The notes below the pieces were generated by a model. The model saw nothing but the letters and a program-made list of their open reading frames with translations, was not told the DNA's origin and did no database searches. From Escherichia phage T5: a stretch of 64,000 nt of DNA. The DNA lies in the sequence record NC_005859.1. The stretch is one strand, 5' to 3'. A program made the translations under genes and the position numbers. Shown in pieces: positions 3,727-62,331 of the stretch (the first letter of the stretch is position 1; the number at the start of each line of letters is the position of its first letter).

Positions 3727-4134
3727 TTATTCGCCTGCGGCTTGTTTTACTTCATCGGCAACGCCTAACAGTTGCGCCACGGCGTCCAGCGTTTCCAATT
3801 TTGCACTTTCCAGTGATGCCAGATCGTCAGCGTCTTTGATAATACCGGAATCGATGGCATGTTTTGCAATCACACGCACGTAGTGCGCTTTGCGGATAGA
3901 ACTGCCGCCGCCAACCTTGCGAGGTTTATCGCTTTTCTGATACGCTTTCGCGCTGGTCAATTTTGAGCGAACAGACACGGGAGAAGCCGCGCCAACTGCT
4001 TTTGCAATCTCTTTTAAACCGTCGCTATTTGCGAAATCTAAACCGTTTTCATTAATTAACTGCTGGTACATGGAAACAGCTTTCTGAGTGTTTTCTTCAT
4101 TCCAAGCGAATTTTGCGGTTTTAGCGTTAGTCAT
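3727..4134 (-). CDS. basic DNA-binding-like protein (possible A2)
   Basis: 135 aa (~14 kDa), basic patch KPRKVGGGSSIRKAHYVR; located directly upstream of A1 in the leftward operon; A2 assignment is inference. Confidence 0.45.
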   Translation of the reverse strand: MTNAKTAKFAWNEENTQKAVSMYQQLINENGLDFANSDGLKEIAKAVGAASPVSVRSKLTSAKAYQKSDKPRKVGGGSSIRKAHYVRVIAKHAIDSGIIKDADDLASLESAKLETLDAVAQLLGVADEVKQAAGE

Positions 4135-4229
4135 GATGTAACTCCTGTTTATTTAATTTAAGGGATAAGATTAACATAATGTTAATCGTTATATCCCCCG
4201 AACTACTGGGGGATATAAAAGTAACACTA

Positions 4230-4481
4230 TTACGCTACGGCTTCCCATTTTTCGTTACGCTGGGCAACCTTTACAACGTCGCCGGATTTAACCCGAACGT
4301 TGTAAACAGTTTTTCCGTTGTTACTCCGTTCCGTTTCAGCGTATACCGCATCAATTACATCAAACGGCATAAGCGCCGCGCCTTTAATGCGTTCGGTTTT
4401 TCCGGTTACCTCATCCGTTTTAGTAACGAAAGGGATAAAAACGGATTGACCAATTTTTGGCGCAGTAGTAACGTTTTGCAT
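4230..4481 (-). CDS. hypothetical protein
   Basis: 83-aa ORF with GGAG ~9 nt upstream of ATG. Confidence 0.5.
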   Translation of the reverse strand: MQNVTTAPKIGQSVFIPFVTKTDEVTGKTERIKGAALMPFDVIDAVYAETERSNNGKTVYNVRVKSGDVVKVAQRNEKWEAVA

Positions 4482-4683
4482 AATATAAACTCCAGTTTAT
4501 TAAGGGGGATTGTTCCGCATTACCTGCTGTAAAAGTAGTGGCAGGTAATAAGCAACAATCCGCTCGCCAATATAATCAATTTAAAGAACTCCACTCAGGC
4601 CGCTATATCCCAGTTAGGGGGCGGGACACATTATGGTAAGTGCCGACCGTCATATTTTATCAAGTTATCGCTCTCATCGAACT

Positions 4684-7559: not shown

Positions 7560-7623
7560 GTTATAATGCCTTTACACCGTTTGAGGACGGTTGAAAATTT
7601 TCCCAAAATTTTGGAGGCTTAAA

Positions 7624-7854
7624 ATGGTTGCTTATTCTTCTTCTGACGCTCTTTTCACTGGAAAAGGCTGGGTATCAAATCGCTGGATCATTCAAGAAAT
7701 GGTGCAGGAGTTCGGCATTGCTAAAACTTACACTACCATTCAGGCGCTTTATGATAATGATCAAATCGATCAGCAAACGGCGGGCTTTTTGCTGGATACC
7801 CTGAAAGCGGAACACTGTACTAAAAAACAAGCCGCCAAAATTGTTTTAATGTAA
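7624..7854 (+). CDS. hypothetical protein
   Basis: ATG with TGGAGG SD; 77 aa. Confidence 0.45.
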   Translation: MVAYSSSDALFTGKGWVSNRWIIQEMVQEFGIAKTYTTIQALYDNDQIDQQTAGFLLDTLKAEHCTKKQAAKIVLM

Positions 7855-7903
7855 TTAATAACGGGGCGTTACTTTCGCCCCACTAACTAGGGGAGTATTA
7901 CAA

Positions 7904-8083
7904 ATGGTTATTTTTCGAGCTATTCTGGCAGGTATCTTGGGCGCTATTCTGACCCTTTTTGCTACCGCTTACGGTATTCAAGATTCTTATTGTGGTTTAG
8001 TAAATACTAAACCTATGGTTATTATTGGCGCGGGTATCGCTGTATTTTCTTATCTGCTGGGCTGCATGAATAAAGGAGAATAA
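7904..8083 (+). CDS. small membrane protein
   Basis: 59 aa, two predicted TM helices; GGGGAG SD upstream; below the 60-aa ORF-track cutoff. Confidence 0.4.
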   Translation: MVIFRAILAGILGAILTLFATAYGIQDSYCGLVNTKPMVIIGAGIAVFSYLLGCMNKGE

Positions 8084-8085
8084 AA

Positions 8086-8298
8086 ATGATCCGCAACGTT
8101 TCTCTTGCTCGTTCAAAGGGTTTTAAGCTGGTGGATGTTAACACATTCGAGCGGGAAGATTGTAAAATCGAATATGTAGCACGTAATAAAAACGCCTTTC
8201 GTGTTACAGAAAAGAAATTTGATAAGCGCGGCAACGTGATAGCTGAAACGGTTAAACATTTTGCCACCTTTTACGCGGCTTTTCGTGGAGTGTTATAA
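8086..8298 (+). CDS. hypothetical protein
   Basis: 70-aa ORF with AAGGAG SD. Confidence 0.45.
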   Translation: MIRNVSLARSKGFKLVDVNTFEREDCKIEYVARNKNAFRVTEKKFDKRGNVIAETVKHFATFYAAFRGVL

Positions 8299-8299
8299 A

Positions 8300-8644
8300 A
8301 TGGTAATTTATGAAGGCAATCGCTTTGTTGCTATTTGCCGACCGGGATTATTAGCAAACTACTTAAATCAGGTGTCACCTGAATATAAAGGCGTCATTAA
8401 TATTTATGAGGGCAAGGCGCATTATAAGATTAATGCGGTCGTTGCCCGTGAATTAGCATTTCAATTTTTGACTTTCGCATCTTGTGATATTCAGGTCATG
8501 GGTGAAGCGTTAATTGCAGAAAATGAAGATGATTTTATTAATATCTTCCGCAAGGTATACACCGAGCGCCTGATAATGAAAGGCGCATATATTCAGTCAA
8601 CTGCGGAAAGTATTGAAACAGCTTTCAGAAAGGTGGCGCAATGA
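8300..8644 (+). CDS. hypothetical protein
   Basis: 114 aa from internal ATG (MVIYEGN) preceded by GTGGAG. Confidence 0.5.
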   Translation: MVIYEGNRFVAICRPGLLANYLNQVSPEYKGVINIYEGKAHYKINAVVARELAFQFLTFASCDIQVMGEALIAENEDDFINIFRKVYTERLIMKGAYIQSTAESIETAFRKVAQ

Positions 8645-8659
8645 AGCTATATATTTTCG

Positions 8660-8938
8660 TTGGTAATGTTGAGGCTGCGAATGATTCCGCTGGTGGCGAT
8701 AACGTTCGCCACTATTGGCAAAAATATATTTACTAGGGTTATTATGATTACACTGATTTGCGTTAAAGCCGAAGGCGACACGATAGCGCGAGAAGGGCAA
8801 AAATATAAAGCCCAAAAAGATCAATTACTCAAAACAATTGAGCGTTACAAAATACCCGATCTCAAGTATTCCGTAGTAGGACGCGATGGGATTCTAAGGG
8901 CGACACTTGAGAACGCTATCTTTGAGATAGTCAACTAA
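8660..8938 (+). CDS. hypothetical protein
   Basis: 92-aa ORF, start uncertain. Confidence 0.35.
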   Translation: MVMLRLRMIPLVAITFATIGKNIFTRVIMITLICVKAEGDTIAREGQKYKAQKDQLLKTIERYKIPDLKYSVVGRDGILRATLENAIFEIVN

Positions 8939-8953
8939 TAACGGGGCGTTATT

Positions 8954-9157
8954 ATGAGCAATAAAATTATTGTGACCAAAACTACCACAATGGTAGACGT
9001 TTTTTATGTGCCCGATACGCCGGAGAATCGGGGAGCGGTCGAGCGGGGCGAGTATGATAGCGTTATTTATGATGCCGATGGTTATTATCAGCATTTGGTC
9101 GATTCCTACGGGGAAGAGGAGAAGATCACGCATCGATTACCCGAGGGGGATTTATGA
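8954..9157 (+). CDS. hypothetical acidic protein
   Basis: 67-aa ORF. Confidence 0.4.
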   Translation: MSNKIIVTKTTTMVDVFYVPDTPENRGAVERGEYDSVIYDADGYYQHLVDSYGEEEKITHRLPEGDL

Positions 9158-9405
9158 AACGATGGTTTAATCACTGGTATAAACGGTTTTTAGTACGGCA
9201 TCGCAAGTCTAGACAGCAAGATGATTGGCGGGAAATGGCAAAGCGTAACAATTGCCCACTTCTCTGATAACCGACGGGGATCAGCTCCCCGTTTTTCACG
9301 CCTCCAGTTAAATCCCCCTTTGTTTTAGTATCCCCATCAAAATTAAACGCGTTAGAATGCGATCTAGGACGTTTTAGGCATATATTAGAATTATTCACTG
9401 CGTAG

Positions 9406-9460
9406 GAATACTGTATAAATATACAGTAGGATAACCTGGGGATAAGTCTGTTGATAACGC
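9406..9460. repeat. right arm of ~40-bp inverted repeat
   Basis: CTGTATAAATATACAG then GGATAACCTGGGGATAAGTCTG, inverted relative to 6187-6238. Confidence 0.65.
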
Positions 9461-9509
9461 TTCAAAATGGCTAGGATTTTGTCAAGGCGAATCGTGCTGT
9501 TGATAAGTC

Positions 9510-9518
9510 TGTGGATAA
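9510..9518. promoter_or_regulatory. DnaA-box-like site
   Basis: TGTGGATAA, reverse complement of consensus TTATCCACA; further copies at 6121-6129 and 6194-6202. Confidence 0.5.
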
Positions 9519-9545
9519 CTTAAATAACAGTGTTTCTCACTTCCG

Positions 9546-9720
9546 TTTTTAAATACGAATCATTATCATTCGTATTCCGCTTTTTAAATGAGAATCATTC
9601 CGCTTTTTAAATGAGAATCATTTCACTTCCTGAATAGTTCTCATTCCCTTTCTTAAATGAGAATCATTATCATTTGCATTTCACTTTTTAAATGAGATTG
9701 ATTCTCATTATCATTCGCAT
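9546..9720. repeat. direct repeats with palindromic core AATGAGAATCATT
   Basis: about 5 tandem imperfect copies of CGCTTTTTAAATGAGAATCATT-like units. Confidence 0.7.
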
Positions 9721-9728
9721 TCAGGCGA

Positions 9729-9755
9729 GCAGGGCAATTGCCCTGCGCTTTTGTG
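9729..9755 (+). terminator. hairpin with T-tract
   Basis: palindrome CAGGGCAATTGCCCTG followed by CGCTTTTG. Confidence 0.45.
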
Positions 9756-10490
9756 CAAATCCGACATTTGCCCCCATGGATTACGCGTGGGCGTGTATGT
9801 GCAAATCCGACAATTTTTGGTAGTGTGCGAATCCGACCCGAAAAATTTTTATAGTGTGCAAATCCGACAATGAATTTTCCCAAAAACTCCAGCAATCACG
9901 AACTGCGTTCGAATCCTGTGGAATTAGCTAGAGTATGTGCAAATCCGACATGTGTTGAGATGTGCGAATCCGACAAGATTTTTGTGACTTCGATGGGAGG
10001 GTGTGTGATTGTATGGGTTTGAGGGGAAGATGAGAGAGCGAGAGAAATTTGGGAGGCTAGAAGGATATGGGCGCAGGATTGGTGCGGAGCACCTGATTTG
10101 CGGGGATTTTGGGGAAGAGTTGAGATAATTTGGGAAGATTTGAGATAGGTGCAGAAAAAGTAAAATTTTATTAGCTAAAGGGGGCAAAATAGCTTGACAA
10201 GTGAAAATTTCTGTGGCTCTAAAAACTCAGGCAATCATGGGCCTTCGGCCCGAAATAATGCTGCTATTTTCAGGAGAGTAAGAGTTCCTAAAAACTTAGG
10301 CGTTTGTGCAAATCCGACCATAAATTTCTAGAAACACAATGTGCAAATCCGACAGTAATTTCTGGAAATGTGTTTTCAAAAAATGTCTTCTAGAAATAAC
10401 CGCCCTCCCTATAACCGCCCTGTATTAAACCGCCTATTGCTGGAGTTTCTAGGAACATGAAAACTGCCCTAGAGTATGTGCAAATCCGAT
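9753..10490. repeat. dispersed 14-bp repeat family GTGCRAATCCGAC(A)
   Basis: 9 copies at ~9753, 9799, 9825, 9856, 9937, 9963, 10306, 10341, 10478; one more inside a CDS at 12164. Confidence 0.8.
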
Positions 10491-10560
10491 GAATATTTTT
10501 GTGTGATCCCTAGAATTTATACTTATCAATTTCCTAGAAACTCAGGAGTCTAGAAGAAAG
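10325..10560. repeat. cluster of TTCTAGAA-type palindromes
   Basis: at least 6 TTCTAGAAA/TTCTGGAAA/TTCTAGGAA/TCTAGAAG sites within ~240 bp. Confidence 0.6.
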
Positions 10561-10935
10561 TGTTGTGCCATCCTAGCAGATGAGCGGCAACAGGTGTATC
10601 ATCTTGAATGTAAATTATATGGTCAAAAGTTTTACTTTTATTTTAAATATAAGATCCCCCAGGGTTCTCATATAGAGCTTTGCCCCCGCCAGAAGGTCTC
10701 GTGATGTTTCTAGTAATTTATATTAAATTACTTATTAACTTGTCCTATCGCTCCGTATCCTCCGCTACAAGTTAGTAATTTTAAATTACTGAACCACCAC
10801 ACCTTCTGTGTGGCAACTCTAAATGGTTAATTCTATTAACTCATAGAGTTATGATAACATACATTTAGCTATCTGTCAACGAAAGTTTGTATTTGAGTCT
10901 CGGTACAGGTATTGTGCACCGAGATATGCAGAGTA

Positions 10936-11820
10936 TTATAATAATTCTTGGTATGCTTTTTGATACGCCTCAGTATCTGTAGGTGTATCTTTTGCTAACG
11001 CAATTAGTTCATCTGTTATCTGAACATTCGTACTATAACGTTGGTGGAACTCTTCTGGGATTTCTAGGTATCTATTTATGAACGCTGCAGCAAGCGGTGT
11101 AACTAACCCAATTTCTAGGGATAACTTAACTTGTTTCTCATAAATTAAATACTGAGAATCAGATGGGATTGGTGGGGTTACATCAACTTTTTCTGGTTCT
11201 TTTTCTGGAAGCAATGGATTGTTATACAATGCTTCATCTGGAAGCACAGATTTACGCTCTTTAAATATATAAGTTTCTAGATCCGATGCTTTAGATCCTG
11301 AGTAAACAGCGAAGATGCTAGCTTTACCTTGTGATGCCCTAACTGGTAAATAGTTAGTTGGGTAACTCCTTAATGCATCATGGAATGGACTTCCTGAGTA
11401 TTTGTATGTATCCCCATAGAGATCATCAATATTCATTCGTTCATCTTCAAAGATATGGAAAGAGCTAAATGATGGGATGGTGAAGTATTCCATCTGTAAC
11501 CCATAAACTAAGAAACGATGTGCATATGCGCTAATCTTTAAGACTGTGAATGCTTTCTCACCTTCTTTATAAGAATTGCCCTTTGAAGTAACTTGATAAC
11601 GCTTACAAAACATCTCTACTAAACGTTTCTCATTAATATTGAGTGAGGAATATAAACGTCCATTTAGCCCTAGAAGGGCATCAAACATAAATGCTAACTT
11701 ATCTTTTTCTTCTTGAGACAGTTCTGGAAATGGTAATACTTTGGCATTAGGAACATTATTGTTCTCTTTAGGTTTTGTTTTACCAGCATTTTGTCTTAGT
11801 TTATCTTTAAAGTTATACAT
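10936..11820 (-). CDS. hypothetical protein
   Basis: 294-aa ORF, first gene of minus-strand early block. Confidence 0.6.
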   Translation of the reverse strand: MYNFKDKLRQNAGKTKPKENNNVPNAKVLPFPELSQEEKDKLAFMFDALLGLNGRLYSSLNINEKRLVEMFCKRYQVTSKGNSYKEGEKAFTVLKISAYAHRFLVYGLQMEYFTIPSFSSFHIFEDERMNIDDLYGDTYKYSGSPFHDALRSYPTNYLPVRASQGKASIFAVYSGSKASDLETYIFKERKSVLPDEALYNNPLLPEKEPEKVDVTPPIPSDSQYLIYEKQVKLSLEIGLVTPLAAAFINRYLEIPEEFHQRYSTNVQITDELIALAKDTPTDTEAYQKAYQELL

Positions 11821-55692: not shown

Positions 55693-55725
55693 AGCCAGGT
55701 TGCTAGTCGACCTGGCTTTTATTTT
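55693..55725 (+). terminator. intrinsic terminator after nrdD
   Basis: stem AGCCAGGT / ACCTGGCT followed by TTTTATTTTATTT. Confidence 0.8.
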
Positions 55726-55727
55726 AT

Positions 55728-55756
55728 TTGCTTTCAGCTAAAAATATATGTATAAT
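55728..55756 (+). promoter_or_regulatory. T5-type early promoter
   Basis: TTGCTT-N17-TATAAT directly after nrdD terminator. Confidence 0.75.
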
Positions 55757-55785
55757 AGATTTATAAATTTGAGGAGGTAGGAATT

Positions 55786-56166
55786 ATGACTTTAAAACCG
55801 TATATAGTGGAGTCTACGTGTGGTGGTTTCCACCTGGGTGTGGATGATATTGCTGAGGCTGTCTTTGCTGCCACAGGTGATTACTCTCATATAGAGGGTG
55901 CTGGATACCCCACCGTTATTGGTGATTGGGTGGAAACAAATCTAGATGTATCGCCTTATAACCCGTATTGCTTGTTTGATGAAGATAGAGATGAGGTAAA
56001 GTGTAATCTTGAATTTGTGTATAATAGAGTATTAAAAGTATACCAACGTAGTCCCGATGGGTACGAAGATATTACTTGTAGTATTAAACAGTATCTTAAA
56101 GATGTATACTCTAGTTTTTCTGACGAAGACCTAGAAACAGTTGCAGTGGAGTTTAATAATGACTAA
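55786..56166 (+). CDS. hypothetical acidic protein
   Basis: 126-aa ORF with GAGGAGG SD behind promoter at 55728. Confidence 0.5.
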   Translation: MTLKPYIVESTCGGFHLGVDDIAEAVFAATGDYSHIEGAGYPTVIGDWVETNLDVSPYNPYCLFDEDRDEVKCNLEFVYNRVLKVYQRSPDGYEDITCSIKQYLKDVYSSFSDEDLETVAVEFNND

Positions 56167-56392
56167 GAATGTGAAACACCTTAAATATCGCTTAATCTAT
56201 AACGGACGTATGGAAACGGAAGAGCTAGCTCAATTAGCTATTAATTCTAATGAGGTTATGGTGCGTGCGCTAGCAATTGAAAAGTTGCGGGCTTCTTATG
56301 AAAGTCGTATTATGGAATTAGAGGAGAAACTTTATGGACTTCTTGAATCAGAAGCTAAAAGTAGTCCAGAGGGCGAGACTTCTAATCAGTAG
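56159..56392 (+). CDS. hypothetical protein
   Basis: 77 aa from internal ATG overlapping upstream stop. Confidence 0.4.
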   Translation: MTKNVKHLKYRLIYNGRMETEELAQLAINSNEVMVRALAIEKLRASYESRIMELEEKLYGLLESEAKSSPEGETSNQ

Positions 56393-56446
56393 TGGAGTAA
56401 TTTTACTCCAAAATATTATCTAGGGGTTCAAGAGAGGAATCATATA

Positions 56447-57265
56447 ATGCGTAGGCTAATTATTATTAGTGGTGCAGGTTTGAGTGTTGAAAGTGGTGTA
56501 CGAGCCTTCCGTACGGATACTGCTAGTGGTAAAGCATTGTGGGATGATTATGATCTAGAAGAGGTATGTAATATTCATGCCTTTCGTGGTAACTTTTATC
56601 ATAAAACCCATATGTTTTACAACAAGCGACGTGAAGAGCTAAAAACTGTTGAACCTAATCTTGCGCATCTTCGTATTGGTGAATGGTATAAGAAATATCC
56701 GGGTCAAGTAGTAAATTTGACTACTAACGTTGATGACCTTATTGAGCGTGCTGGTGTTCCGCATAGTGACATTCTGCATATTCATGGGTATTTAAAAGAG
56801 GTTGTTGTAGCTGACAGCTACAATAGTAGCAATAAACGAGTTATTGATGTAGGGTACAATTCTATTGACCCAGATGATTATAAATGGGTTAAACCTAATG
56901 TAATCTTCTTTGGTGAGCATGCTCCAGCGTACACAGAAATGTATAATATTTTTGATGGTATTACCAGTCAAGATATGATCGTTGTAGTTGGTTGCTCTAA
57001 CCAAGTAATTAACTTCTACTGGGAATTATTCCCTATTCTTAACCGTACTGCTGCGAAACTTATGGTAGTTAACTACTATGATAGTGCCCTAGCATCGAAA
57101 CCAGGCTATCAAGGTATGACTCGTAGTGATATGTACCAACTGGAAGATCGTGGTATTCCTTACTGGAGTAAAGGTGCGGTAGATGCTTTCAGTGATCCTG
57201 GTTTTATTGCTCGTGTAGAAGCTCATCTAGAGGGTAGACCTTATGTGTCAGGAAGTAAGAAATAA
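56447..57265 (+). CDS. Sir2-family (sirtuin-like) NAD-dependent protein
   Basis: 272 aa; N-terminal Rossmann motif ISGAGLSVESGVRAFR. Confidence 0.75.
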   Translation: MRRLIIISGAGLSVESGVRAFRTDTASGKALWDDYDLEEVCNIHAFRGNFYHKTHMFYNKRREELKTVEPNLAHLRIGEWYKKYPGQVVNLTTNVDDLIERAGVPHSDILHIHGYLKEVVVADSYNSSNKRVIDVGYNSIDPDDYKWVKPNVIFFGEHAPAYTEMYNIFDGITSQDMIVVVGCSNQVINFYWELFPILNRTAAKLMVVNYYDSALASKPGYQGMTRSDMYQLEDRGIPYWSKGAVDAFSDPGFIARVEAHLEGRPYVSGSKK

Positions 57266-57428
57266 TGAATGGGATATTTTCATAACTGAGTCTGGCACTT
57301 GGTGCTATAGATTTGCCTATAGGTTTCCTAGTGTAAGAAAACGGCTGGGATACACATATAAAATTATCTACACTACAGATAATATATGGTTATCCTCTGG
57401 AGATGAGGGGAAACAGATATGTCCATAG
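57243..57428 (+). CDS. small protein with W-x-(S/E)-G-(S/T)-WCYR motif
   Basis: 61-aa ORF; shares motif with next ORF; start uncertain. Confidence 0.3.
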   Translation: MCQEVRNNEWDIFITESGTWCYRFAYRFPSVRKRLGYTYKIIYTTDNIWLSSGDEGKQICP

Positions 57429-57601
57429 TTAAATCTGTGTATACACATCCCGATGATATATTTGTATGGGCGGATGGTAGTTGGTGCTATCGATGTGAGC
57501 TATGGGAAATGGACTATAAATCCGATGACTATGGTGTCATATATGTTGATACAGTTGAGTATGATACGTTCTTAGAAAGGGACAAAAATGGAAATAAGTA
57601 A
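57419..57601 (+). CDS. small protein with W-x-DGSWCYR motif (paralog)
   Basis: 60-aa ORF; ADGSWCYRCELW. Confidence 0.35.
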   Translation: MSIVKSVYTHPDDIFVWADGSWCYRCELWEMDYKSDDYGVIYVDTVEYDTFLERDKNGNK

Positions 57602-58094
57602 TACTCCAATTATTTTTCTAGACATTGATGGGGTGCTCAATTCGAGCATCTCCCACCATCATGCACCTGATGATGAAAAGATTTTCTTTGGAAGTGACTG
57701 GGTTTTTAAACCGCTTCTCAAGGCTTTTCAGGACTTTATTCGTCCTTCTCCAATAATGATTGTTGGGGTATCTTCATGGTTCTCTGTCAGGAATGAGATG
57801 GAGAACGTTCAGATTATGACCGGGTTAGGTCTTATAGACCGTTTTCTTGGTACAACGGATTTTACTGGTGGTGGGCTATCTAGGGGTAATTCTGTTCTTC
57901 GCTTCGTTGAAAAGCATAAGCTCAAACATTGGTGTGTGCTGGATGATGCTGGTGCTATGATGTATCAGTATCCAACGGTTATAGTCAATGGTAGAACTGG
58001 AATAAATCTTCAAGATTTAAGAGCTGTTAGCTATATGTTAGAATTTAGTCCAGATCTTGAAATGTGTAAAGCCCTACAACAATTTAAGGTGTAA
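57588..58094 (+). CDS. HAD-like hydrolase
   Basis: 168 aa; N-terminal FLDIDGVLN (DxDG) motif. Confidence 0.55.
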   Translation: MEISNTPIIFLDIDGVLNSSISHHHAPDDEKIFFGSDWVFKPLLKAFQDFIRPSPIMIVGVSSWFSVRNEMENVQIMTGLGLIDRFLGTTDFTGGGLSRGNSVLRFVEKHKLKHWCVLDDAGAMMYQYPTVIVNGRTGINLQDLRAVSYMLEFSPDLEMCKALQQFKV

Positions 58095-58096
58095 AT

Positions 58097-58525
58097 ATGT
58101 TTAATAATGTATTCTCTAAAGAAGCTAATCCAATATTGGTTAATTTTTGGCGTACTCTTCCAGCCAACCTGTACAATGAGGCTATTAATGCTCTAAAAAT
58201 ATGGTGTGAGAATAATGAAATCTCCTTTGCTTTTAAAGGCGAGATTGAAGAAGCTCCCTGTATTGGTTTAATTGTGCAGGTAGAGGATGGTCTTGAAGAG
58301 ATTGTCGGCTGGAAAGAGTTAGATGAAATGGGCTTGGTTTTTGCATTAAACTATAAGCTGTTTATGCCTAATAAACACCGTATTGTTGTTAACTATAAAA
58401 CCAGTGAATCTCCTGGCTTTCAAGTTAATGAACATTACGGTTGGTCTTACTCACCGGAAGAAGTAAATGATGGTATCCAAAAACTTCGTCGTTTTGGTTA
58501 TCAAATTCCGGGTTTAACTGCCTAA
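58097..58525 (+). CDS. hypothetical protein (tandem paralog A)
   Basis: 142 aa; shares PCIG...W.EL.EMGL..ALN..LF.P...GY..PGL pattern with next ORF. Confidence 0.5.
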   Translation: MFNNVFSKEANPILVNFWRTLPANLYNEAINALKIWCENNEISFAFKGEIEEAPCIGLIVQVEDGLEEIVGWKELDEMGLVFALNYKLFMPNKHRIVVNYKTSESPGFQVNEHYGWSYSPEEVNDGIQKLRRFGYQIPGLTA

Positions 58526-58534
58526 GGAGGCACA

Positions 58535-58927
58535 ATGGAACAAATATATTGGCGTCAGATTGATCCTAGTTTGGTGAAGTGTGCAGAGAAGCTGCTACAA
58601 CGTTGGTTGGGGGTAAGACAAGCCTCCTTCACTTTTCCGGAGCAGCAAATAGACGATCCCTGTATTGGTGTTTTCCTATCAGGCTACGCTGGGGAATGGG
58701 AATTGGATTGGAATGAATTGTCTGCTATGGGTTTAATTGTTGCACTAAATTTCTCTTTGTTCCATCCACGTGGTTTGGCTATATGTCGTGTGCCTGATGA
58801 TGGTTGTTCGCCCCATCTTTTACGGGTGGAAGATGATATTTGGGAGTACACTCCAGATACTCTCAAAGAAGCTAAAGAACAGTTAAACCGTGTTGGGATC
58901 TATGTTCCAGGCCTGAATGATGAATGA
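58535..58927 (+). CDS. hypothetical protein (tandem paralog B)
   Basis: 130 aa; paralog of 58097..58525; AAGGAGG SD. Confidence 0.5.
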   Translation: MEQIYWRQIDPSLVKCAEKLLQRWLGVRQASFTFPEQQIDDPCIGVFLSGYAGEWELDWNELSAMGLIVALNFSLFHPRGLAICRVPDDGCSPHLLRVEDDIWEYTPDTLKEAKEQLNRVGIYVPGLNDE

Positions 58928-59019
58928 TTTTTATTAGCTGAACTCTGATTACCGAGTCATTTTGGCTCGGTTTTCTCTGTACTCAAAGACACTGATAGCA
59001 CCATCCGGAAAATTTTACT

Positions 59020-59048
59020 TGCAGGATGCCCAAAATCTTGATATAATA
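59020..59048 (+). promoter_or_regulatory. sigma70 promoter heading a ~500-nt ORF-free region
   Basis: TTGCAG-N17-TATAAT; next ORF starts at 59545. Confidence 0.55.
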
Positions 59049-59544
59049 TTTATATTGAATTGAGAGACATTAGTAAAAATTGATTTTGCTAATTTTTCTT
59101 GTTTACAATCCGCGATACGGAACAGTTAGGCTGCCCCATTAAGGGTTGTTTTAACTGTTACTAGTGTTTATATTGCATTAGTTAATATTCAATTAAGTGA
59201 TCTGTGTACCCTGAATTCGGAAAGGTAAATCCAAACCGTGCATATTTAGCTCGTTATATAGGCAGAGTTTTATATGGGGGTGCGAACGAAAAGAGCAGCG
59301 AATGGCGGCACGTACAGTAGTCACCTACCAATAGGATAGTGAGGACAAATAGAATCGGCTTAGCGGCCAATGACCTAGGTTCTATTCTGTATATGAGCGA
59401 AGAGAGCACAGCACTGAGATATGATAACTTATTCATATTGTTTGATGATAATTGATGTTTACGTAAATAGTAGTAATAGTTGTTCTATTCTTTCTGAATA
59501 GTCCTAAAGAAAAGATTTCGATTAACCAACACAGGAGTATTGTT

Positions 59545-62331
59545 GTGTTTTCTATCCTCCAAGGTCACGCCGGATTTTCTCGTGATTTAGCAACAGGTAT
59601 TTGGCGAGAAATCAAAGCGGAAGATTATACCTTTGCCAAGCGATTCTCGAAAGAGCATCCAGAAGGTAAACCAGCTTCTATGCCCTTCAAATTTGATGTA
59701 ATAGAAGAGCACGACCCACAAAGCCTTGCCGAAATGTTACCCCTCATGAGACGTTTAACGTCTGACCCTCATATCGTTGCGGTGCGAGGTCGATGTCTCG
59801 CACCTAAAAATAATGTGCGACGTAAGAAAGGTAACTTTAATGTATCTAATCCTAGTAATATTATTGCTATGGACGTGGATGGTATCCTAGATACCGGTGG
59901 GTATGACAAATTTAATCTTGTTGGTATGGCCCGCCACATTATTAAGATGTTGAATAGTATTAGTGAGGATATGTTTCCTCTTGATGCAGGGTTTATTGCT
60001 CATGCATCGTCTTCGGCTGGGCTAAAACCAGGTATCCGAATGCACTTAATGCTAGAATCTAACGTCAAGGTAACTCAGGGTCAGCTAAAGTTCTTATTTA
60101 CATCTATCAACGATAGTAGTAAGCAAAAATTTGGTTTTGATATTGCCGACCTAGCTTATTATTCATCTGTCCAGCTCCACTATTTTGCCGACCCCTTATT
60201 TAGCGATGGTATTGTTGATCCGTTTAAAGCGGAGAGTAAGCCACGTCTGGTGTATGTTAAAGGTTCGAAAGTAAATTTGCCCAATAATCTGGTTGACTAT
60301 GAAACAACTAGAGGGGAGTTTAAGGAAGAGTTTTATTCTTTACTTGATCAAATTAAAGGCAAAAAGATTGCTTCTGATAAAGTAGAAGAAACCATCAGCG
60401 AGTTAGAAGAGGCTGATGATGGAGTGTATTTGCGTATTATCCCCAAACTATACCATAGAGCATTAGAGGATGGTGTTGATTTTGCATGGCTAGAACGTGA
60501 GATTAAACCAGCTTTATCTGAATATATTGCAACTAAAGATAACAGTCGTAATATTCAAGATTACTTTAATAACGGTCGTAAGCAGGCTCTCAAAGCGTTT
60601 GTTAATAATTCTAAACGTGAGATTCCATTAAATCTGAAAGGTGTTCCACTTAAGAAATTAGAAGTGGATTCTCCACCAGAAGTTCCATACCTGAAGATTA
60701 ACATTGTGCCCCCAAAAGGCCATATAACATTTGTTAAGGCAAGTCTTGGTACTGGTAAAACTACGGCAGTAACTAAATGGCTGGACGCAGGTGTTCTTCC
60801 AGGCAACTTTTTAGCAGTTACAAATACTAGAGCACTGGTATCTTCAAATGCCAAGAAATTTAGTGCAGGACAATACGATAAGTCTGTAGATATGCTCAAC
60901 TTTAAACGTGGAGCTATCGATCGTATGTCCACAACTATTCACTCTTTGCATAAGTTCAAAAGTTTTATTGGGCAAATAGACACCATTTTTATTGATGAAT
61001 GTGACGCTGTAATGAATGACCTATTATTCGCCCCTGTTGTTAAACAACGTCGCGAGTGTATTCAAGTTCTACGTGACATCCTTATGACAGCTAAGACTGT
61101 AATCTTATCCGATGGTGATATTAGTGCTGAGACGATTGAAGCATATGGTTCTCTAATTGATTTTGATAAACCAGTAGCATTTTATAATCATCACCGTAAA
61201 ATGCTGTCAAAAGCACACGCTTATGAGTTTCCTGATGAATCCAGTATTTGGGTTGCACTTCAGACTTCTCTAGAGATGGGTGAGAAATCTATTCTAGTAT
61301 CTGATTGTGGCCCGGATGAGCTGAATGAGAAGGGTATGGCACTGCGTCGTAATACGGGTGCGTTAGTTAAGGAAATCCATTCAAACTCCACCTCAGATGT
61401 GGATATTCGACGTATTCTGGATTATACAACTAATGAGCTAATTGATCAACAAATTGATTGCTTATTATGTAGTCCATCCGTAACGAGTGGCGTTGACTTT
61501 AACTATTTCGATAATGTGTTTGTTATTACTAGAACCAGTAATCAAGCGCCAAACATGCGTTTCCAAGCAATCAGGCGCGACCGTGGTGCCCAGAACATCT
61601 ATTATTTTATTGATAAATCTACGAGTGGATTCTCTGCAGGTTCTGAGCAATATAATATTGATGAAGGTTGGCTGGAGTTAGCACAGCAATTATACGCACG
61701 TCGTAGAGAGCTGGAATCTAGAAACTATACTAGTACCTTACGTTATTATTTGCTTGATCAGGGTGCAACTATTGATATTTTCAGCGAAAGCTGGGGAACT
61801 ATTGAAGGTGCTGGTAAAGAATATACAGAAGAGCGAATCAAAGCTATTCTGCATTCAACTCCAGATTATTGTGCCCCACGTCATGCAGATGCATATGAAG
61901 CTAAACTACTTCTTGTTCGCTATTATCATCTTGAGTCTATTAAAGATGTAACAGTTGAGCATGTCGAACAATATATCAAAGATAAACCGAATGATCGAGC
62001 TGCATTCTTCCATAAGATGCACGAGATGTTCTGGGAAGATATTAAGAAGTGTTCAAATGTGACCATTAAACCATTCATAGAGGCTCTGAAAGGTAAGAAG
62101 AAAGACTTCTTCCTTAAAACAGGTCAGAGTGCCAACCCAAAATATGCTAGAATGTATCTTGGTATGATGGGTATTGGTAAGGATATGAACACTGAAAATA
62201 TTGTAGACTGGTACAGAACCTATTGTAAAATCGAGTGTATGCCAATTCCTTTCAAATTCATGACAGAGGAAGAGAGGGCTATGGCAGAAGAAGTAATGTC
62301 CGAACTTGGAGCAACTAATGAAGATGCATAA
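59545..62331 (+). CDS. P-loop NTPase, helicase-like (putative replication origin-binding protein)
   Basis: 928 aa; GTG start with ACAGGAG SD; Walker A SLGTGKTT, Walker B IFIDECD. Confidence 0.65.
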   Translation: MFSILQGHAGFSRDLATGIWREIKAEDYTFAKRFSKEHPEGKPASMPFKFDVIEEHDPQSLAEMLPLMRRLTSDPHIVAVRGRCLAPKNNVRRKKGNFNVSNPSNIIAMDVDGILDTGGYDKFNLVGMARHIIKMLNSISEDMFPLDAGFIAHASSSAGLKPGIRMHLMLESNVKVTQGQLKFLFTSINDSSKQKFGFDIADLAYYSSVQLHYFADPLFSDGIVDPFKAESKPRLVYVKGSKVNLPNNLVDYETTRGEFKEEFYSLLDQIKGKKIASDKVEETISELEEADDGVYLRIIPKLYHRALEDGVDFAWLEREIKPALSEYIATKDNSRNIQDYFNNGRKQALKAFVNNSKREIPLNLKGVPLKKLEVDSPPEVPYLKINIVPPKGHITFVKASLGTGKTTAVTKWLDAGVLPGNFLAVTNTRALVSSNAKKFSAGQYDKSVDMLNFKRGAIDRMSTTIHSLHKFKSFIGQIDTIFIDECDAVMNDLLFAPVVKQRRECIQVLRDILMTAKTVILSDGDISAETIEAYGSLIDFDKPVAFYNHHRKMLSKAHAYEFPDESSIWVALQTSLEMGEKSILVSDCGPDELNEKGMALRRNTGALVKEIHSNSTSDVDIRRILDYTTNELIDQQIDCLLCSPSVTSGVDFNYFDNVFVITRTSNQAPNMRFQAIRRDRGAQNIYYFIDKSTSGFSAGSEQYNIDEGWLELAQQLYARRRELESRNYTSTLRYYLLDQGATIDIFSESWGTIEGAGKEYTEERIKAILHSTPDYCAPRHADAYEAKLLLVRYYHLESIKDVTVEHVEQYIKDKPNDRAAFFHKMHEMFWEDIKKCSNVTIKPFIEALKGKKKDFFLKTGQSANPKYARMYLGMMGIGKDMNTENIVDWYRTYCKIECMPIPFKFMTEEERAMAEEVMSELGATNEDA

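Follow-up and report, generated by a model that had tools for sequence, protein, structure and literature searches.

A predicted zinc-less sirtuin and HAD phosphatase in an early operon of bacteriophage T5

Genes T5p098–T5p105 of Escherichia phage T5 (NC_005859.1) are an early operon, which we analysed within a 64,000-nucleotide stretch of that genome (hereafter the window, whose numbering is used for T5 throughout). Judged from its motifs and predicted fold, T5p100 belongs to the CobB/SIRT5 (class III) branch of sirtuins; its active-site motifs are all kept, its zinc site is lost, and it looks enzymatically intact. Downstream in the same operon, T5p103 is predicted to be a HAD phosphatase with all catalytic motifs intact. 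Comparison with related loci leads us to favour, tentatively, a reading in which the sirtuin would use a phosphate acceptor in the manner of Tpt1, with the HAD protein as its end- or by-product phosphatase; we regard this as possible rather than probable. An initial annotation, made from the sequence alone, had proposed counter-defence or manipulation of host NAD for the same genes, and its claims are taken up below beside the results that bear on them.

Results

T5p100 resembles CobB and lacks the zinc ribbon

The initial annotation had called T5p100 (56447..57265, + strand, as are all features located below; 272 amino acids) a Sir2-family protein, and this call holds: the open reading frame matches Pfam SIR2 (PF02146) with E=1.1e-24 (24-bit cutoff). 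In the PDB the nearest sequence belongs to E. coli CobB (1s5p, E=1.4e-17), with Archaeoglobus Sir2 (Af1) and SIRT5 next, and a Foldseek search with the AlphaFold2 model (predicted local distance difference test, pLDDT, 90.6) placed CobB first, at a template modelling (TM) score of 0.85 on the target, again followed by Af1 Sir2 and SIRT5. Homologues form a clade that is restricted to phages and was found by tblastn in 1008 phage records, including T5-like phages, Vequintavirinae/Mydovirus, Phapecoctavirus, Moazamivirus, KVP40-like Vibrio phages and jumbo phages.

We assessed conservation across 31 members of this clade (36–84% identity), among which the sirtuin motifs are invariant or nearly so. 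Residues 9-22 of T5p100 (GAGLSVESGVRAFR) align with the NAD-binding motif of CobB as GAGxSxESGxRxFR and are nearly invariant; FYNKRR, TTNVD, HIHG and KPNVIFFGE align with FYNARR, TQNID, HMHG and RPHVVWFGE of CobB, and a GCS motif is likewise aligned. Within these motifs, the catalytic histidine H113 (HIHG) and N94 are invariant and D96 is nearly invariant. The class III YxxR motif is kept, with Y58 and R62 invariant and FYNKRR standing for FYNARR of CobB, and the VxFFGE substrate loop is invariant. T5p100 therefore has in common with CobB and SIRT5 the Rossmann fold, GAGxSxxSGIxxFR, FYNxRR, the N and D of TQNID, the catalytic His-Gly and the VxFGE loop.

It departs from them, at ~24% identity, chiefly in the small domain. 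The cysteine positions of the CobB Cys4 zinc ribbon align to non-Cys residues in T5p100, and no conserved Cys pair was found in the 31 members, whose sole invariant cysteine is C41. The T5p100 model retains β-strands at the former zinc-module position, and this segment bears a near-invariant DVGY motif across the clade. The Q of TQNID is always T in the 31 phage proteins, and about one third of them carry a ~26-residue insertion in the small domain. That Vibrio phage homologues have lost the zinc cysteines was noted before (PMC5107563). The active-site check that the initial annotation had called for was thus borne out for the catalytic residues (H113, N94 and D96) and failed for the zinc ribbon, which is absent.

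These features bear directly on the default function of the fold, a plain deacylase. T5p100 would then act early in infection as a CobB/SIRT5-like enzyme that strips lysines of host or phage proteins of their acetyl or acidic acyl groups (succinyl, malonyl), for instance to reactivate metabolic or replication enzymes, and its neighbours would be unrelated to it. All of the nearest relatives in sequence and fold are lysine deacylases, neither the acidic-acyl pocket motif FYNxRR (YxxR) nor the VxFFGE loop varies within the clade, and an in-silico study of a Vibrio phage homologue came to the same conclusion, suggesting that salt bridges may replace the zinc site (PMC5107563). Set against this are the clade-wide absence of the zinc cysteines, with the module replaced by the DVGY-bearing segment, and the constant replacement of the Q of TQNID by T. 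In characterised sirtuin deacylases the zinc-binding cysteines are structurally required. A deacylase also leaves unexplained why genes for RNA ligase, 2H, Nudix, HAD and NARP1 proteins recur beside the sirtuin, as described below. We consider it a real but rather doubtful explanation.

By analogy with bacterial anti-phage systems, the initial annotation had further compared T5p100 to defence Sir2 effectors, a comparison that we could not sustain. None of the eight operon proteins matched a PADLOC defence model at E≤0.01, no defence SIR2 occurred among the top 50 structural matches of the T5p100 model, and the nearest relatives are the deacylases CobB, Af1 Sir2 and SIRT5. T5p100 has the Sir2 superfamily fold and presumably NAD cleavage in common with the defence SIR2 NADases (ThsA, DSR1/2, SIR2-HerA, SPARSA), and is unlike them in being standalone and phage-encoded, with no sensor or partner domain and no PADLOC match. 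A Pfam search found no fused or adjacent sensor domain in the operon proteins, nor did it detect in any of them the Macro domain that a SirTM pairing would require, an absence on which Iyer et al. 2022 also remark in their discussion of these loci (PMC9503650). A literature search found no paper with experiments on any phage sirtuin of the T5p100 clade. Some deposited records label the Sir2 protein 'tail assembly protein' and the DUF7415 proteins encoded further downstream 'tail tube protein' (e.g. proteins P0012 and P0269; hits H78 and H205); these are clear misannotations.

T5p103 carries a complete set of HAD motifs

T5p103 (57588..58094; 168 amino acids) matches the Pfam family HAD_SAK_2 (PF18143, 'HAD domain in Swiss Army Knife RNA repair proteins') with E=4e-20, and its FLDIDGVLN is HAD motif I, in agreement with the HAD-type hydrolase named by the initial annotation. 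In five homologues (T5, 1-29, Kashira, PAc and MP1; 30–92% identity) motif I (DIDG), SSW, GGGxxR and the acidic motif IV are invariant, which in T5p103 places D12-I-D14-G-V, S62-S63, R99 and D120 among the residues common to all five. A sequence search for a structural relative gave no PDB match at E≤1.

The nearest HAD relatives outside T5-like phages, at 38% identity, belong to the Serratia phages Kashira and ChuuTotoro and to ABPH49. In all three, the HAD gene lies immediately upstream of Adps, overlapping it, in a Prs-like/Nampt-like operon of NARP1 type. The Kashira locus (7606-11221) has the HAD gene between a winged-helix-like gene and Adps, with overlapping stop and start codons. Some NARP1 operons (NARP1-AP) encode a Macro-domain ADP-ribose (ADPR)-1''-phosphate phosphatase, Adpp, a homologue of yeast Poa1p that defeats RES-type NAD phosphorolysis; the main text of the preprint that describes it does not mention a HAD protein (Osterman et al. 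2026, bioRxiv 10.64898/2026.01.28.702374). Like Adpp, the Kashira-type HAD is a phosphatase gene embedded in an Adps–Namat operon, and it may be the HAD-type counterpart of the Macro phosphatase of NARP1-AP. This position, seen in just one further lineage, makes the T5p103 family a candidate for a non-orthologous ADPR-phosphate phosphatase; Adpp differs from it in having a Macro rather than a HAD fold, and T5 itself is without NARP1. Such an activity would also clear the by-product of a Tpt1-like sirtuin. Elsewhere, the HAD gene of Aeromonas phage PAc adjoins genes for PTH2 and RF-1-domain proteins, a translation/tRNA context, and the context in Morganella phage MP1 is uninformative.

The initial annotation had spoken of NAD/ADP-ribose-related partners for the Sir2 protein. 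For the HAD protein this may be right, given the 38%-identical HAD upstream of Adps in Kashira and its two relatives; for the small reading frames and the DUF7415 proteins of the operon we detected no link to NAD. The same observations bear on its wider proposal of counter-defence or host NAD manipulation, which we spell out as a scheme in which the sirtuin would ADP-ribosylate a host defence or housekeeping protein or tune the NAD/ADPR pool, and the HAD protein would detoxify or recycle ADPR-1''-phosphate arising from RES-type defences. Sir2 does lie beside NAD-reconstitution genes in several lineages, the placement of HAD within the NARP1 operon of Kashira-like phages parallels that of the Macro phosphatase Adpp, which defeats aRES, and T5 replication depends on an NAD-dependent DNA ligase, so that the NAD pool matters to the phage. 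T5, however, is without the Adps and Namat needed to use ADPR, its sirtuin is unlike defence NADases, and its operon has no detected Macro-domain gene. NAD consumption without a target would bring the phage no gain, and the gene-wide substitution rates given below carry no arms-race signal. We judge this proposal improbable.

Beside the family itself, two points of annotation were noted. PHROG 18062, named 'Sir2 (NAD-dependent deacetylase)', in reality matches residues 77-168 of the HAD protein, its C-terminal half (E=3.5e-58). Many RefSeq records of T5-like phages list 'Sir2' twice, with the HAD gene labelled Sir2 (e.g. HWC67_gp110 of phage 1-29); the PHROG name probably explains these double labels, which look like a propagated annotation error.

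Sirtuins of the clade recur beside RNA-repair and NAD-reconstitution genes

We next consider where relatives of T5p100 are encoded. In Klebsiella phage KB57 (Mydovirus) the order is phosphoesterase – RNA ligase – x – P-loop kinase/ATPase – x – Sir2 – ATP-dependent DNA ligase, followed at some distance by MazG and NADAR; KB57 also carries a divergent Prs-like/Nampt-like pair, which in the related BASEL phage Bas63 is NARP1 (bioRxiv 10.1101/2024.02.11.579819). Jumbo phage fHe-Yen9-04 combines NMNAT-like, NAMPT, a 149-amino-acid 'RNA ligase' that is presumably of 2H type, Sir2, Nudix and PhoH. To these we added 58 IMG/VR loci, which fall into 24 Sir2 clusters at 85% identity and in which neighbours were recorded within 7 kb. 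RNA ligase and kinase occur together in 8 of the 24, seven of which also have phosphoesterase, ATP ligase and MazG; Adps and Namat occur in a quarter (6/24), and about half of the clusters have none of these partners. The contexts observed match the three types of neighbourhood that Iyer et al. 2022 described.

In the T5-like clusters nrdD, D2 and DUF7415 are always present and HAD is found in three of five; Sir2 and HAD are closely linked in the Tequintavirus- and Epseptimavirus-type loci examined. The pairing also appears in an unrelated 86-kb IMG/VR contig (L078) whose Sir2 is 43% identical, in the order nrdD–nrdG–glutaredoxin … Sir2 … HAD_SAK_2, with Sir2 and HAD within 2.4 kb. T5 shows the kind of linkage described by Iyer et al. 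2022, between a sirtuin of the phage clade and an RNA-end-processing enzyme, with HAD_SAK_2 two small genes downstream in the same operon. Their type 3 neighbourhood, with SP15 as prototype, is in fact the same locus, with no structural difference: the T5-like SP15 region has 94.6% DNA identity over 87% of the T5 query.

Several side observations were made in these loci. The nrdD gene of contig L078 (1-2897) is in three separate open reading frame pieces, which suggests introns, inteins or homing-endonuclease insertions. Sir2 and nrdD are at most a few kb apart in L078, in contig L080 (5039-10122, order NAMPT–Sir2–nrdD) and in T5-like phages. The sirtuin gene of Vequintavirinae adjoins an ATP-dependent DNA ligase gene, whose start it overlaps or abuts. 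A mycobacterial Sir2 is reported to participate in non-homologous end joining (PMC3102665).

We searched T5 for the missing partners with tblastn (E≤0.01; positions 1–82,000 plus the window), using the partner proteins of KB57, Kashira and fHe-Yen9-04 as queries. No match was found there to the RNA ligase, kinase, phosphoesterase, MazG, NADAR, Adps, Namat, 2H, Nudix or ATP ligase, and hence no complete heal-and-seal set of RNA ligase and kinase. Nor is any of these partners annotated in the T5 gene lists, whose unlisted part falls in the late structural region from ~73.8 kb.

A small WCYR protein accompanies the sirtuin

Immediately after the sirtuin, and overlapping the end of its gene by 23 nt, lies T5p101 (57243..57428; 61 amino acids), followed by T5p102 (57419..57601; 60 amino acids, net charge about −7 as counted from the sequence). 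Both match PHROG 5116 (E=7e-24 and E=2e-29) and they are paralogs by local alignment against 1000 shuffles (z=6.5). The initial annotation had given the two a common W-x-DG(S/T)WCYR motif. The paralogy and the G(S/T)WCYR part are confirmed, within a longer common DIF-x4-G(S/T)WCYR; W-x-DG is found in T5p102 alone, which reads WADGSWCYR where T5p101 reads TESGTWCYR. Since orthologues in other phages read (V/L)WP(D/N)G(S/T)WC(Y/F)R, T5p102 is the conserved copy of this small acidic protein and T5p101 its divergent duplicate. The duplicate was seen in T5 and slur09 (Tequintavirus), while 1-29 (Epseptimavirus) and Sugarland have a single copy.

A WCYR gene directly follows the sirtuin in slur09, 1-29 and Sugarland, that is, in all T5-like genera examined. 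In the different family Grimontviridae, Salmonella podophage 7-11 (E=1.4e-5) and a contig related to it (E=2.5e-9) have a WCYR gene that overlaps the sirtuin gene at its 3' end. Erwinia phage phiEa104 encodes a WCYR protein without an adjacent sirtuin. We take T5p102, and T5p101 with it, to be a probable regulator of the sirtuin or an adaptor for its substrate. As a further candidate role we considered whether CYRC of T5p102 could serve the sirtuin in trans as a zinc knuckle, and rejected it because Sugarland (WCYRS) and phiEa104 (WCFRS) do not conserve the second Cys.

In Salmonella phage 1-29 (locus ~4336-4500) the WCYR gene after Sir2 (MCDLLVWPDGSWCYRFEF…SDDFCVIYEDT…) is unannotated, and the adjoining annotated gp111 is a different, hydrophobic small open reading frame. 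The 44-amino-acid metagenomic protein P0026 joins a T5p101 N-terminus to a T5p102 C-terminus at the common DIF…WCY motif, and looks like a deletion through (unequal) recombination between tandem paralogs.

The operon genes are under purifying selection

Ratios of non-synonymous to synonymous substitution rates (dN/dS) between T5 and slur09 are 0.106 for Sir2, 0.138 for T5p101, 0.071 for T5p102, 0.012 for HAD, 0.069 for T5p104 and 0.056 for T5p105; all six genes T5p100–T5p105 are under purifying selection. The diversifying selection at which, for the initial annotation, the tandem duplication had hinted is not supported by these gene-wide values of 0.01–0.14, and for the tandem paralogs themselves it was rejected at the level of whole genes (0.06–0.14). 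HAD is the most constrained gene of the operon. Between T5 and Epseptimavirus 1-29, dN/dS is 0.22 for Sir2 and 0.05 for HAD at similar dS (1.3 vs 1.0), the sirtuin protein evolving ~4x faster than HAD. The identity of ~61% for Sir2 against ~92% for HAD in this pair had raised the possibility of a horizontal swap of the Sir2 allele; as the dS values are similar, faster evolution of the Sir2 protein fits the gap better and the swap was rejected.

Two DUF7415 proteins point to deoxynucleotide metabolism

The tandem paralogs reported by the initial annotation were recovered as T5p104 (58097..58525; 142 amino acids) and T5p105 (58535..58927; 130 amino acids), which both match DUF7415 (PF24187; E=3e-33 and 3e-30) and align over their full length (local alignment z=28). 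Each consists of two repeats: taken alone, the N-terminal halves fit the 53-residue Pfam model at E=4e-15 to 6e-18 and the C-terminal halves at about 4e-14. The predicted fold is confident and has no solved structural relative. Word-indexed homologue searches with T5p102 and DUF7415 returned only close relatives, so that a full HMMER search of representative proteins was needed; among 1.84 billion of these it found 163 DUF7415 relatives, mostly small and with a core of only ~55 residues in common. In longer members the domain is joined to thymidylate kinase or to a dATP/dGTP pyrophosphohydrolase (PF04447), and the single pyrophosphohydrolase-DUF7415 fusion examined for context lies in a prophage-like region. 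In the T4-like Klebsiella phage KpV477 (locus 3995-4213) a 72-amino-acid single-domain DUF7415 protein is encoded between nrdD and nrdG, overlapping both, and in RB16 a DUF7415 gene lies near nudE, dNMP kinase and frd. From these contexts we infer that DUF7415 is tied to deoxynucleotide metabolism and not to NAD; it might, for example, be a small domain that serves as an adaptor or regulator. T5p104 and T5p105 probably belong to the surrounding deoxynucleotide-metabolism block and not to the sirtuin pathway.

Organisation and limits of the operon

The region 55700–59600 is identical to T5 st0 (AY692264.1; 100%) and nearly so to T5 ATCC 11303-B5 (AY587007.1; 99.8%) by megablast, and annotations of AY587007 were shifted into window coordinates with an offset of 69. 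The match bears out the phage origin given by the initial annotation, whose reading frames all lie at the positions it stated. The window begins where the T5 record does and covers its left 64 kb. The gene order of this nucleotide-metabolism and replication block is thyA, dhfR, nrdB, nrdA, phoH, nrdD, the operon, the D2 helicase and the NAD-dependent DNA ligase (ligA/ligB), and the operon, between nrdD and D2, is flanked by Rho-independent terminators. The upstream one, after nrdD (55693..55717), was found by terminator scan and is a putative terminator in AY587007; the downstream one (58951..58971) was found by the scan and is annotated in AY587007. Annotated early promoters precede T5p098 and T5p100. 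The first, the putative T5P31 (55714..55783), comes from the AY587007 annotation only and was not listed by a sigma-70 consensus scan; the second, also putative and from annotation, spans 56380-56446.

The transcription unit opens with T5p098 (55786..56166; 126 amino acids; PHROG 11748), followed by T5p099 (56159..56392; 77 amino acids; PHROG 5236). T5p098 has a dN/dS of 0.15 against slur09, and because it is recognisable in only some T5-like loci it is probably not a core partner. From the sirtuin onwards the genes are tightly packed: beyond the overlap of Sir2 with T5p101 already given, T5p101 and T5p102 overlap by 10 nt and T5p102 and HAD by 14 nt, with gaps of 2 nt between HAD and T5p104 and 9 nt between T5p104 and T5p105. 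Downstream, ~570 bp of AT-rich non-coding DNA (58972-59544) separate the operon terminator from D2, the origin-binding helicase, and contain the annotated early promoter T5P32. A search for RNA elements and repeats within and after the operon gave nothing notable, 58972-59544 having only weak short repeats and no Rfam match.

Discussion

The tentatively preferred Tpt1-like reading would run as follows. The sirtuin would spend NAD+, move ADP-ribose onto an anionic acceptor and free nicotinamide, as in the scheme of Iyer et al. 2022, and the acceptor that we would rank first is a nucleic-acid phosphate, namely the RNA 2'-phosphate left by cleavage with a host or defence ribonuclease, as for Tpt1/KptA. 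HAD could then either take off the terminal RNA phosphate or dephosphorylate the by-product ADPR-1''-P. The WCYR protein is translationally coupled to the sirtuin and travels with it between phage families, and any sealing step would rely in T5 on host enzymes. KptA-like removal of RNA 2'-phosphate was proposed for the sirtuin + SAK-HAD type, with SP15 as prototype, in section 3.7.3 of Iyer et al. 2022 (PMC9503650). Tpt1/KptA would have in common with T5p100 the NAD+-dependent ADP-ribosyl transfer to phosphate, with release of nicotinamide and ADPR-1'',2''-cyclic phosphate, and is unlike it in fold, belonging to the ART superfamily where T5p100 has the Rossmann fold of sirtuins. We prefer this reading because it alone accounts for both the recurrent RNA-ligase, 2H, Nudix, HAD and NARP1 contexts and the remodelled substrate module.

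A number of points weigh against it. We know of no sirtuin demonstrated to act on RNA phosphate, and the retained FGE loop and YxxR motif are precisely what a lysine deacylase requires. The RNA-ligase contexts come mostly from related myovirus lineages and so represent few independent events. Within T5 the search described above found none of the expected partners, and as there is no phage RNA ligase or kinase, RNA repair would have to use host ligases. The Sugarland locus is without HAD while retaining Sir2, the WCYR gene and two DUF7415 genes, and HAD is also absent from one further T5-like cluster; conversely, the 16.4-kb HAD locus of Kashira has no sirtuin, including beside its DNA ligase, where KB57 has one.

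Such separations could mean that these are independent early accessory genes, kept collinear by vertical inheritance in the Demerecviridae, with the sirtuin, WCYR, HAD and DUF7415 proteins serving separate functions. Each part is indeed found without the others (HAD in the Kashira locus, WCYR in phiEa104, DUF7415 in KpV477, Sir2 in about half of the IMG/VR clusters), and the DUF7415 fusions indicate dNTP enzymes, not NAD. Start/stop overlaps nevertheless couple Sir2, T5p101, T5p102 and HAD, the adjacency of Sir2 and WCYR recurs in an unrelated podophage family, and the proximity of Sir2 and HAD recurs in contig L078. We judge this explanation unlikely. We give as little credence to the fullest version of the Tpt1-like reading, which combines three claims: that the zinc-less sirtuin would be the first with a nucleic-acid phosphate acceptor, a Rossmann-fold analogue of Tpt1; that the T5p103-type HAD would be a new ADPR-1''-P phosphatase, clearing the by-product beside the sirtuin and acting in NARP1 operons as a non-Macro 'associated phosphatase' against RES-type NAD phosphorolysis; and that WCYR would be an obligate adaptor or regulator. 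The conjunction of all three is a long shot.

Parts of this picture are already known. T5p100–T5p105 have been annotated since 2004–2005, T5p100 as 'NAD-dependent protein deacetylases SIR2 family' or 'cobB putative transferase' and the others as 'hypothetical protein', and the genes, the Sir2 call, the lost zinc site and the sirtuin–HAD neighbourhood are all annotated or published (PMC9503650). The WCYR proteins, the DUF7415 pair, the absence of ligase and kinase from T5 and the HAD gene in NARP1 operons go unmentioned in the relevant passages of Iyer et al. 2022 (PMC9503650). The present analysis adds a T5 locus without ligase or kinase partners, a Sir2–WCYR cassette that recurs across phage families and the occurrence of HAD in NARP1 operons, together with the double-repeat architecture of the DUF7415 proteins, their want of a solved relative and their dNTP contexts, and the finding of purifying selection.

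NAD+ is a central battleground between bacteria and phages, with NAD-depleting defences on one side and NARP1, NARP2 and NARP1-AP on the other, so that a phage enzyme that spends NAD needs explaining. More than 1000 phage genomes, those of T5-like siphophages at one end and of jumbo phages at the other, encode a sirtuin of this clade. Its role could most readily be established with T5 on E. coli K-12, where its partners are fewest, a single mini-protein and a single HAD phosphatase, and where the phage brings no ligase, kinase or NAD-synthesis genes.

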